IMG/VR virus record: IMGVR_UViG_2609459863_000007
Span: 1-7,247 of that record
DNA: 7,247 bases
From: a virus
Taxonomy: Duplodnaviria; Heunggongvirae; Uroviricota; Caudoviricetes
Direction: 5' to 3' (one strand)
Part shown: in pieces, positions 1-3,000 of the stretch
Numbering within the stretch: the first letter of the stretch is position 1
Layout: each line of letters starts with the position of its first letter
Position numbers: made by a program

Positions 1-3000
1 ATTCCCGTAGTATTCCTGTCATCACCATTCAGGGGCGCAATGGTGGGACGTATGTCTGTAAAGAGCTGGTCTATGCATATGCAATGTGGATCAGCCCGGC
101 ATTCAGCTTAAAAGTGATACGTACTTTTGATGCGCTTCATAATTCATCACCAGAAGAAACCACATCCGACAAAATTAAATCCGGGGTCATTCTGCTTGAA
201 TCAGCAGCAAAGACTCTAAATCTGTCAAACTCCTCGAAACTTGGTGCATACCAGAAATTATCAAAGGTAGCTGGTCTTCCTGAACTTATGCCGATCTATG
301 CCATTGATGCACCTGCTGATGCGCCAGATGGTTCAAGCCGCCCTACGCTGTCGCTGAGTGCACTGCTGAAGCAGTATGGTATCCGCCTGACGGCTAATCA
401 GGCATATCACCAGATGGCGAAGCTGGGGATCGTTGAACAACGCGAACGATACAGCCGTACCGCGATTAACAACATCAAAAAATTCTGGTCGCTGACAGCG
501 AAAGGCTGCATGTTCGGCAAGAACATCACCAGTCCTGCAAATCCGCGCGAGACGCAGCCGCATTTCTTCGAATCCCGATTCCCTGAGCTGTTAAAGCTGC
601 TCGATACCGTTCATTGAGGTGACCGTGAGAGCACTACTGACCCCTGAAATTGCCCCGCGTATGGGGATCGTATTGTTCAGACCAGGTTCAGAGCTGATGC
701 CCCTGTTTATGCAGGGGCGTGTCCTGCTGGAGCCTGAGCCGGAGCGTTATTCATCTTTCGCCAGTGGTGCCGTTCCGGCGGCATCACAACCGCTGGCGGA
801 TGATCCTGCCGTTCGGGCCGTGTTCCGCAATGAGGCAGTGATCCGTCGTGCTGGTGGCGTGGAATGTCTTGAAAGCTGGTTACTTCGTGAAAAAGGCTGC
901 CAGTGGCCTCATTCCGACTGGCACAGCGAGAACATGACCACAATGCGACACGCTCCGGGTGCAATCCGTCTGTGCTGGCACTGCGATAATCAGCTGCGCG
1001 ATCAGTTCACGGAACGGCTGGAATCAATGGCAACGGATAACTGTGCCCGCTGGGTGTTGTCTGTTGTGCGTCGGGATCTCGGTTTTGATGACAGTCACGT
1101 TGTGACAATGCCGGAACTGTGCTGGTGGCTGATTCGTAATGATCTGGCGGATGCCTTACCGGAAAGTGCAGCCCGTAAGGCCCTGAGATTACCGAAGCCT
1201 GTTGTGCCGTCTGTCACCCGGGAAAGTGACCTTGTGCCTTCGGTTACTGCCACCAGCATCATCCAGGATAAGGCGAAAAAGGTGCTGGCGCTGAAAGTGG
1301 ATCCGGAGTCGCCGGAGTCTTTTATGTTACGCCCAAAACGTCGTCGCTGGGTTAATGAAAAGTACACGCGCTGGGTTAAGACGCAGCCGTGTGCATGTTG
1401 TGGTAAGCCAGCCGACGATCCTCATCACCTGATTGGTCATGGTCAGGGTGGAATGGGTACAAAAGCGCATGACCTTTTTGTGTTGCCTTTGTGCAGAAAA
1501 CACCATGACGAACTGCATGCGGATACCGTGGCATTTGAAGAGAAGTATGGTTCCCAACTGGAGCTGATATTTCGTTTTATCGATCGCGCACTGGCGATTG
1601 GTGTGCTGTCCTGATTTTGTGGAGAAAGTTGATGCGTGATATTCAGATGGTTCTTGAACGCTGGGGGGCATGGGCGGCAAGTGGTAACACCGGGGTGGAC
1701 TATTCTCCGATAGCTGCTGGATTTAAAGGCCTTTTACCATCCACCGCTAAACCTCGCCCGGCCTGCAGCGATGATGACGGCCTTATCATCGAAAACTGCC
1801 TTACGCGCCTGAAGAAGAAAAAACCGGACGAGTATTCGCTGCTGGTAGCTCATTATCTGCTGCGCATATCAAAAAGGCAGATTGCCAGAACAAGAAAGAA
1901 GAGCGAAAAGGCAATACGAATTGAGATACAGATTGCTGAAGGATTTATTGACGGATGTCTGTCGATGCTGGGTGTAAGGCTGGAGATGGACGACTGGCTG
2001 CCCAAAAAAGTAAAAAATGATTAGCGCGGTCCGCAAAAAGTATGTCAGTATGTTAAGAGTGGTTACTACGCCACACAACTTAAACCCGCCGCCTGGCGGG
2101 TTTTTTATGACTGAAATCGCATCAGTACAGTAAACGTGCTGGTGGTGAATACCTGTCTTTCAGCTTGCTGGCTTTTTAGACAAGAGTTATTGGTATGTCA
2201 CGTTAACCGGAAAAGGGAAAAAGACATGCTAAAACAGCAGGATATGACAGAAACCGCCAGAGTGGTGTTTAATGAATTAAGCGTCACCTACCCGGCGACA
2301 GTCGGGGAGATTGCGCAGAATACTTACCTTTCACGCGAACGCTGCCAGTTAATACTGACCCAGCTGGTTATGGCGGGTCTGGCAGACTATCAGTTCGGTT
2401 GTTACAGACGCCTTCCGCAGTGAAGGCTTTTTTATTTGTGGTAAATGGGCGGCTGGTGGGTGTGGTGGTTGTTGCTTCCCCGTTGCTGAAAAAGAAAGCA
2501 TCAGGCGATTAGCAGGGTATCAGTTACCCGTTGAAATTTTTAAATACCTCACAATTCAGGCGGTTGACTGTTGTCTGGTTTGCGGGGAGTTTGTTAAAAG
2601 AAACTGGCATGGTGAATCCCCCTGTGCGGAGGGGCAATCAGCAACTGGTGTTTTGTCACCGACCCTTATCCTTTCTGTGCGGGTTCAGGTGCTGATACTG
2701 AACTCACCGGGAGGCACCCGGCACCATGCAATGGCACATAGCGCCACTCTCCAGCCCCTCTCCGGAGGGGCTTTCTTATGGACAAAAAAAGCCCGCGCTG
2801 GGAGACGCGGGCGGCAAGGAATAAACAACAAAACGTGAAGTGATATTTCAGCTGGCGAATAATATCCGACAGTAATCACTCTGCGCAATAGCGCGGCCTT
2901 TTTCGTATTGCGGGCTGTAGTCTTCCTCCTGCCATTGTCCTGTAACTTCCGGACTTCAGCCCGTTCCCTCATCTGACTCACAACATTATCCCGACCGGGA

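Follow-up and report, generated by a model that had tools for sequence, protein, structure and literature searches.

In Escherichia coli O157 Sakai, convergent small RNA (sRNA) genes lie between the moron coding sequence and a conserved downstream open reading frame (ORF) in the prophages Sp3, Sp4, Sp5, Sp9, Sp10, Sp11, Sp15 and Sp17 (PMC4104026), an arrangement that a 2021 review (PMC7873438) named 'dyads' while calling the reason for it unclear. The sRNAs AsxR and AgvB are anti-sRNAs against FnrS and GcvB (Tree et al. 2014, PMC4104026), and the STnc100 family consists of prophage sRNAs that include EcOnc27/sRNA103 (downstream of stx2B), EcOnc05 and, more distantly, PasD. Here we describe the interval upstream of nanS-p, a prophage sialate O-acetylesterase gene, in a 7,247-nucleotide (nt) stretch of a tailed-phage genome (the window; positions 1 to 7,247 of IMG/VR record IMGVR_UViG_2609459863_000007, Caudoviricetes). 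Two adjacent hairpins in this interval, T1 and T2, are in our view very probably the 3′ ends of a convergent dyad of Hfq-binding sRNA genes, set in the moron-insertion region between Q/pR′ and nanS-p. The feature is already known, since both its architecture and its allele (EcOnc05 / EcOnc08-21-42) have been published; the new part is a conserved AsxR-type promoter, which would imply an unrecognised sRNA of ~70 nt in the window allele.

The features on which the argument turns are the following, in window positions, as are all coordinates below unless another locus is named.

2578–2783, + strand: STnc100-family sRNA gene, EcOnc05 allele (full-length RF02076 match).
2753–2772, with U-rich tail 2773–2782, + strand: T1, intrinsic terminator of that sRNA (terminal hairpin of RF02076; fold; variant stems with compensatory changes).
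2812–2791, with U7 tail 2790–2784, minus strand: T2, intrinsic terminator for leftward transcription (scan; fold; position equivalent to the AsxR and AgvB terminators).
2784–2853, minus strand: predicted nested sRNA of ~70 nt (start A2853 by alignment with the AsxR +1; 3′ end in the U7 run).
2859–2888, minus strand: predicted σ70 promoter of the short RNA (−35 TTGCGC, 2888–2883; 18-nt spacer; −10 TATTAT, 2864–2859).
2784–3055, minus strand: long RNA homologous to EcOnc08/21/42 (3′ end defined; 5′ end estimated from the ~271-nt Sakai northern band).
2881–2905, + strand: T3, a third conserved hairpin (CTGCGC-AATA-GCGCGG then CCTTTTTCG; consensus scan).

The hairpin pair and its conservation

T1 consists of AGCCCCTC-TCCG-GAGGGGCT, an 8-bp stem with six G–C pairs, followed by the tail TTTCTTATGG. 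T2 reads on the + strand as an A7 run (2784–2790) and then GCCCGCGC-TGGGAG-ACGCGGGC (2791–2812), and on the minus strand as GCCCGCGU-CUCCCA-GCGCGGGC and then U7, with seven G–C pairs and one U–G pair. A sequence-only reading of the window had placed two hairpins at 2753–2812, where both are indeed present, and had given T2 a stem of seven G–C pairs; all seven stand, and the closing U–G pair, which forms on the minus strand only, makes eight. A consensus scan of the window ranked T1 and T2 second and third among 17 terminator-like sites, compared with 6.9 ± 2.3 such sites per window in shuffled sequence. Their predicted folding energies, −18.0 kcal/mol for T1 on the + strand (z = −3.2; 1 of 200 shuffles as good) and −16.9 kcal/mol for T2 on the minus strand (z = −3.8; 0 of 200), are both better than those of shuffles.

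Neither hairpin has the form of a bidirectional terminator, in which one hairpin has an A-tract 5′ and a U-tract 3′: 3′ of T2 the + strand reads GGCAAGG, with no U-run, and the minus strand after T1 reads UGGAGAGUG, with no U-tail. Because each has a U-tail on one strand only, T1 and T2 are two separate unidirectional Rho-independent terminators, tail to tail, not one bidirectional terminator, and T2 is, as first read, a terminator for leftward transcription only. The two RNAs are predicted to stop a few bases from each other, without overlap. Bidirectional intrinsic terminators between convergent genes, reportedly described by Ju et al. (2019, Nat Microbiol), are said to be single hairpins flanked by an A-tract and a U-tract; the present pair resembles them in that convergent units finish within a few bases of each other, but differs in comprising two hairpins, each U-tailed on one strand only.

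Conservation was assessed by scanning IMG/VR for the invariant STnc100 core and pooling the hits with fetched phage and genome loci, which gave 141 occurrences. The core is followed by a window-type minus-strand cassette in 45 of the 141 and by one of AsxR/AgvB/EcOnc03 type in 20; the remaining occurrences, apart from four loci too short to classify, have no minus-strand hairpin and are of EcOnc04 type, PasD-like or of other kinds. Within the window-type family T2 takes at least six different stems, most of them at −10.5 to −20 kcal/mol, including GCCCGCGU/GCGCGGGC, GCCCGUGC/GCGCGGGC, GCCGCUCUU/AGGAGCGGU, GCCCGUAU/AUGCGGGC and GCCCGC/GCGGGC, all of them with 6–9 U after the stem; every variant examined keeps 5–9 A directly 5′ on the + strand, a U-run on the minus strand. 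In a 15-sequence alignment, 93% of cells are paired, against 39–61% in slid controls, and five pairs have both partners altered, where shuffles give 1.3 ± 1.0 (none of 500 reaches five); this alignment misplaces two divergent stems, which makes the result an underestimate. The homologues of T1 also have variant stems with compensatory changes. Loss of the hairpins from homologous intervals, the outcome that the sequence-only reading had named as telling against it, is not what is found: they persist in diverged intervals, with different stems.

The T2 copy of Sakai Sp15 (the prophage encoding Shiga toxin (Stx) 1; L135) has a stem mismatch, CGCGGGC to CGCTGGC, with a predicted energy of −10.5 against −16.9 kcal/mol; EcOnc42 was nonetheless detected at Sp15, where Tree et al. 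(2014, PMC4104026) also flag a predicted Rho-independent terminator. In the IMG/VR contigs L023, L030, L037, L050, L078 and L093, two STnc100 cores stand in tandem, 255–484 nt apart, the first followed by other downstream sequence and the second by a window-type dyad, which suggests duplication or recombination within the sRNA slot.

T3 is present in every allele, including those of AsxR and AgvB, and its stem sequence is largely invariant; compensatory replacement stems occur in L008, L062, L115 and L077 (for example, CCTTGC/GTAAGG and CCAGAT/ATCTGG). Alleles of EcOnc04 type have no other terminator downstream of the STnc100 core. T3 appears to be under double constraint, since it also carries the −35 element of the minus-strand promoter.

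The probable convergent RNAs

A scan of all Rfam families matched 2578–2783 to STnc100 over the full model (RF02076, positions 1–206 of 206; 143.2 bits, gathering score 47; E = 1.4 × 10⁻³²), with T1 aligned to the last helix of the model and providing the 3′ stem-loop and U-rich tail that belong to it. Hairpin 1 is thus the terminator of the STnc100/EcOnc27/sRNA103/PasD family (RF02076; Zhu, Shabalina and Storz 2026 preprint), whose structured core, GGUGAAUCCCCCUG...CACCGGGAGGCACCCGGCACCAUG, is intact in the window and which all 11 related Stx/lambdoid phage loci carry in this position. The window differs from the Sp5 EcOnc27 allele in the central variable region and the 3′ third (143 bits versus 208 bits). 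T1 is read here as terminating its own sRNA gene, not the Q-proximal module; the Q region has terminators of its own at 2086–2107 and 2410–2433. The true start of the EcOnc05 allele may lie ~30 nt upstream of 2578, given northern sizes of ~222–247 nt in Sakai. The family is known as discrete Hfq-associated RNA from Sakai EcOnc05 (cross-linking and analysis of cDNA (CRAC), with a ~222-nt northern band; PMC4104026) and also from the EDL933 copies, and the window RNA would, by its near-identity to Sakai EcOnc05, be expressed as an Hfq-associated species.

Between T1 and T3, Sakai Sp4 (L014) and the window have almost the same sequence, with only a few differences, one of them a base in the T2 loop. 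There, EcOnc05 (+ strand, 1179806–1179914, ~222 nt on northern blots), EcOnc08 (minus strand, 1179938–1180010, '~271 nt') and EcOnc21 (minus strand, 1180016–1180101, '~271 nt') are listed (Table S2, PMC4104026), EcOnc08 and EcOnc21 each being a homologue of EcOnc42 of the Stx1 phage Sp15 (PMC4104026); northern blots confirmed the Hfq-CRAC peaks of EcOnc05 and EcOnc08/EcOnc21 (Tree et al. 2014, Mol Cell, PMC4104026). This dyad, EcOnc05 / EcOnc08-21, and the Sp15 copy with EcOnc42 are both nearly identical to the window allele. With L014 position x taken as window x + 2147, the minus-strand peaks map to ~2786–2858 (EcOnc08, 73 nt) and ~2864–2949 (EcOnc21). The published EcOnc08/21/42 northern probe, AATAATATCCGACAGTAATCACTCTGCGCAATAGC, is identical to window + strand 2858–2892 at 35 of 35 bases, and matches L014 and L135 exactly as well; by virtue of this identity, a minus-strand RNA that covers 2858–2892 and abuts T2 can be taken as documented for the window allele, at a near-identical locus.

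The whole layout, with Q at 1617–2024, STnc100 at 2578–2783 (+), T2 and its promoter at 2784–2888 (minus) and nanS-p from 3007, is that of a convergent dyad and matches Sp4, Sp5 and Sp15. Like the dyads of Tree et al. (2014), the pair follows the moron slot and precedes nanS-p, is oriented tail to tail and has a + strand partner of the same family; we see no material difference, the window merely being without stx or another moron.

In 6 of the 11 related loci a minus-strand Rfam match lies 1–2 nt past the STnc100 end: AsxR (RF02703) in VT2-Sakai/Sp5, PA28, phi191 and VT2phi_272, and AgvB (RF02702) in PPyecE_EH1910 and BP-4795. It is in exactly this slot that the window sequence, shared in alignments with phi367, Stx2_111430 and KH16-043, differs from AsxR and AgvB. 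The AsxR model gave no match and the AgvB model 10.8 bits (gathering score 56), even with the search limited to 131 nt, and the conserved AsxR/AgvB 3′ region of ~42 nt (GUAUCUCAUGC..UUGCCCGAACCCAYUCGGGC) is not present in the window minus strand. Membership of the window RNA in either Rfam family was therefore rejected, the covariance models having failed in two tests.

What the window allele does share with AsxR and AgvB is position, strand and promoter: the slot 1–2 nt past STnc100, and an aligned −35, spacer length and −10. In the comparison of minus strands from the window, Sp4, AsxR (Sp5), AgvB (PPyecE) and the BP-4795 copy, a homologous upstream region, AAGGCCGCGCnnTTGCGCAG, with an 18-nt spacer from its TTGCGC hexamer, leads to TAAAAT in AsxR/AgvB or TATTAT in the window, that is, to a homologous promoter (TTGCGC, 18 nt, TAWWAT) with a transcription start at the equivalent position; downstream of the aligned +1, the transcribed parts of the window and of AsxR/AgvB are unrelated. 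Among 22 unique window-type variants from IMG/VR and phage records, the −10 and the 18-nt spacing are kept in all and the −35 in all but L077 (TTGCAA), while the spacer sequence and the RNA body diverge. The consensus scan missed this promoter because its −35 matches at only three of six positions.

The 5′ end of AsxR, mapped by rapid amplification of cDNA ends (PMC4104026), aligns with window A2853. The RNA predicted from this start, AGCUGAAAUAUCACUUCACGUUUUGUUGUUUAUUCCUUGCC followed by T2 and U7, folds as an essentially unstructured U/G-rich body and then the terminator, and it coincides with the 73-nt EcOnc08 CRAC peak (2786–2858). Such an RNA would have gone unseen on the published blots because the probe (2858–2892) lies upstream of the predicted start. 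It would resemble AsxR and AgvB in having a short unstructured 5′ body and then a GC hairpin and U-run, and would differ from them in the sequence of the whole transcribed body and terminator and in its predicted length (70 nt versus 51–60 nt); a further difference is that the sole documented species for the window allele is the longer ~271-nt form. The window cassette keeps the AsxR/AgvB promoter and has a different body (conserved CUUCACGUUUU, then a variable U/G-rich stretch) and a different terminator. We raise tentatively, as a possibility we would put somewhat short of even, that T2 terminates an unrecognised ~70-nt primary sRNA (2853→2784), which would give the prophage anti-sRNA locus a cassette of a third type, possibly a sponge or seed mimic, with a long isoform antisense on nanS-p.

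An RNA of ~271 nt ending at T2 would start near 3055, inside the nanS-p coding region, and, if this 5′ estimate is right, would run antisense across the ribosome-binding site and start codon of nanS-p. The only candidate minus-strand promoter detected by the scan (ATGTCA-17-GATAAT, 3013–2985) predicts ~195 nt, and inspection of the sequence revealed no convincing promoter near 3060–3100. The suggestion of the sequence-only reading that the 3′ end of a minus-strand RNA lies here was essentially right, given the Hfq-CRAC peaks and northern band at Sakai Sp4, although it had suggested a start within 2813–3006, not the ~3055 estimated for the documented RNA. That reading saw no minus-strand gene to the right, which is correct for protein genes only.

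A minus-strand protein gene was considered and rejected: a 107-amino-acid (aa) ORF (3008–2685) runs through T2, T1 and STnc100, and the other ORFs are of at most 39 aa. Automated annotation places minus-strand hypothetical or pseudo ORFs over STnc100 and the dyad (window 2597–2737 and 2685–3008; L004 590–1020), from a RefSeq pseudo-coding sequence and three PHANOTATE ORFs in phage phi367; the small minus-strand PHANOTATE ORFs of phi367 have no PHROG match. Since they run through sRNA genes and terminators, these ORFs are probably spurious.

Two resemblances of the body were also set aside. A 9-nt identity with Spot 42, ACUUCACGU, found in the conserved block of the predicted short RNA at window 2832–2840 (minus) and in E. 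coli K-12 spf (L137 240–248; Spot 42 nt 41–49), has p ~0.03–0.07 as a single comparison, with 3% of shuffles giving a match as long, and fails multiple testing. Spot 42 regulates sialic-acid genes, and the predicted short RNA with this 9-mer sits beside a sialate esterase gene; only one sRNA was compared, and we treat the marginal match as coincidence. Complementarity of the U/G-rich body to GcvB or AgvB amounts to a 7-nt seed seen by eye and is not claimed.

Alternative accounts of the pair

As we envisage the dyad, each RNA would, in the lysogen, be made from its own promoter and stop within a few bases of its partner's end, without overlap: T1 would end the + strand STnc100-family sRNA (allele EcOnc05), and T2 would end minus-strand transcription begun to its right, comprising the ~271-nt Hfq-bound RNA and the putative nested sRNA of ~70 nt. 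T1, and then T3, would stop unmodified RNA polymerase before it enters nanS-p and the lysis genes, and T2 would prevent antisense transcription from reaching STnc100 and the module upstream of it. Antitermination by Q is the established read-through mechanism of lambdoid phages, and on the strength of that behaviour Q-modified polymerase from pR′ would be expected, upon induction, to pass T1 and T3. By analogy with AsxR and AgvB, the minus-strand RNA would most likely act in trans via Hfq, through its unstructured U/G-rich body; the long form may in addition have a cis effect on the leader of nanS-p.

Several observations weigh against this account. The northern size of ~271 nt fits neither the predicted 70-nt nor the ~195-nt RNA, and the structure of the long transcript is no better than that of shuffles (z = −0.36). 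The transcript evidence for the window is all transferred from Sakai by sequence identity, and the mapping assumes a zero offset between NC_002695.1 and NC_002695.2 at Sp4, where the probe positions agree, yet there is an offset of ~140 nt at Sp5. Sponge function, finally, cannot be carried over to the minus-strand RNA by homology, because that RNA fails the AsxR and AgvB covariance models.

The sequence-only reading had offered, as one of two options, a bidirectional terminator insulating the Q module from nanS-p, and in its purest form this would make the hairpins a block to transcription between the two and the RNAs functionless by-products. T1 and T3 do lie between the upstream promoters and nanS-p and the lysis genes, T2 does shield the upstream region from antisense transcription, and the purpose of dyads is, as the review (PMC7873438) says, unclear. 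We nevertheless consider pure insulation improbable: T1 is integral to a structured and conserved family of sRNAs that are bound by Hfq and appear on northern blots; the minus-strand slot in sister alleles is held by AsxR and AgvB, with demonstrated trans functions; and the minus-strand promoter is conserved along with T2, which would be pointless for merely stopping stray transcription. Neither hairpin, moreover, is bidirectional, T2 having no + strand U-tail and T1 no minus-strand U-tail, and the Q module has terminators of its own. The proposed insulator accordingly gives way to two unidirectional terminators, of which T1 ends its own sRNA, and any insulation that nanS-p and the lysis genes gain from them in the lysogen is plausibly a side effect and not the defining function.

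Less probable again is that T2 is not a minus-strand terminator but a + strand RNA element of the late/nanS-p transcript, such as a stabilising 5′ hairpin or a processing site. Its site in the nanS-p leader of a Q-dependent late transcript would suit such a role and the + strand reading folds too, at −15.4 kcal/mol, but that fold stands out less (z = −2.1; equalled by 8 of 200 shuffles) than the minus-strand one (z = −3.8; 0 of 200). The run of 5–9 A found 5′ of the stem in every variant is a U-tail on the minus strand, of which a + strand stem-loop has no need, the closing U–G pair forms on the minus strand only, and Hfq-bound minus-strand reads abut the hairpin in Sakai. A chance origin of the hairpins, as inverted repeats in GC-rich intergenic sequence, is effectively refuted, even though shuffled sequence also yields 6.9 terminator-like sites per window, by the covarying conservation of the stems, with compensatory changes across diverged homologues, as well as by the rarity of shuffles that fold as well (0 of 200 for T2, 1 of 200 for T1), the place of T1 inside an Rfam family match and the transcripts documented at the identical allele.

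Surroundings, distribution and meaning

The convergent sRNA genes are set in the late-regulatory region of a lambdoid prophage, as judged from Pfam and from the RefSeq annotation of a 99.9% identical E. coli locus, which together give the following map (Pfam/RefSeq unless stated).

84–617: KilA-N fragment.
619–1614: DUF968.
1617–2024, + strand: antiterminator Q gene (Pfam Phage_antitermQ, 175 bits; RefSeq annotation).
2226–2423: hypothetical ORF of 65 aa.
3007–4968, + strand: nanS-p, prophage sialate O-acetylesterase (Pfam DUF1737, SASA and DUF6645; the conserved ORF downstream of the dyad).
Between nanS-p and the holin gene in map order: DUF1378.
5691–5906: P21-type holin.
Between the holin and lysozyme genes in map order: DUF1327.
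6675–7208: lysozyme.

The Q gene sets the context, a late operon with a moron site downstream. The slot between Q and the dyad holds neither stx nor another moron, its sole ORF being the 65-aa hypothetical one, and the hairpin pair stands in a 580-nt gap before nanS-p (named 'SASA family carbohydrate esterase' by RefSeq in the 99.9% identical locus), the counterpart of which in Stx phages is the region just downstream of stxAB. At the site of the dyad RefSeq has nothing, or spurious pseudo-ORFs.

Further terminators were noted along the window. One at 2086–2107 (+; CCCGCC-GCCT-GGCGGG then T6), ~60 nt past the Q stop codon and missed by the consensus scan, is a candidate tR′ that would give a short pR′–tR′ RNA analogous to StxS or lambda 6S RNA; a minus-strand STnc370 match at 2075–2147 (29.8 bits, below threshold in the Rfam scan) probably reflects the same hairpin read in reverse. 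Also on the + strand between Q and the dyad, a second terminator at 2410–2433 (GCCTTC-CGCAGT-GAAGGC then TTTTTTATTT) overlaps the stop codon of the 65-aa ORF. The top-scoring terminator of the window, 5625–5663 (+), with a 12-bp stem AGGGCCATCAGT...GCTGGTGGCCCT and then TTTGTTGTTG, lies just upstream of the holin gene. PasA/PasC-type sRNAs adjoin the holin/lysozyme operon, downstream of the esterase gene (Zhu et al. 2026), and because of that placement this terminator may be another unannotated sRNA 3′ end; the scan of all Rfam families gave no match at 5625–5663.

A 77-nt cassette containing T2 is found in 992 of 5,426 complete E. coli genomes, at 1,434 places and mostly at 95–99% identity, and 57 phage records carry it too. 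None of the listed genome records annotates it, and a few phage records show it only as 'hypothetical protein'. As AsxR occurs in 290 of the same 5,426 genomes, the window allele is more than three times as common; no other allele of the locus is as common or as little studied, and it has no Rfam family. Among GTDB species representatives, the exact T2 pattern gave no matches; a gapped one gave 92, which fell in unrelated phyla, lacked the A-run and hairpin context in every case and were put down to chance.

Standard annotation thus passes over two regulatory RNA genes, and possibly a third, in the 'non-coding interval' upstream of nanS-p. The + strand partner carries single-nucleotide polymorphisms reported as predictors of haemolytic uraemic syndrome, and the sister alleles of the minus-strand partner, AsxR and AgvB, rewire host iron/haem and amino-acid regulation in enterohaemorrhagic E. 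coli. If the nested RNA of ~70 nt is real, it could be a sponge or seed mimic for a core sRNA network, and the long isoform could be an antisense regulator of nanS-p.

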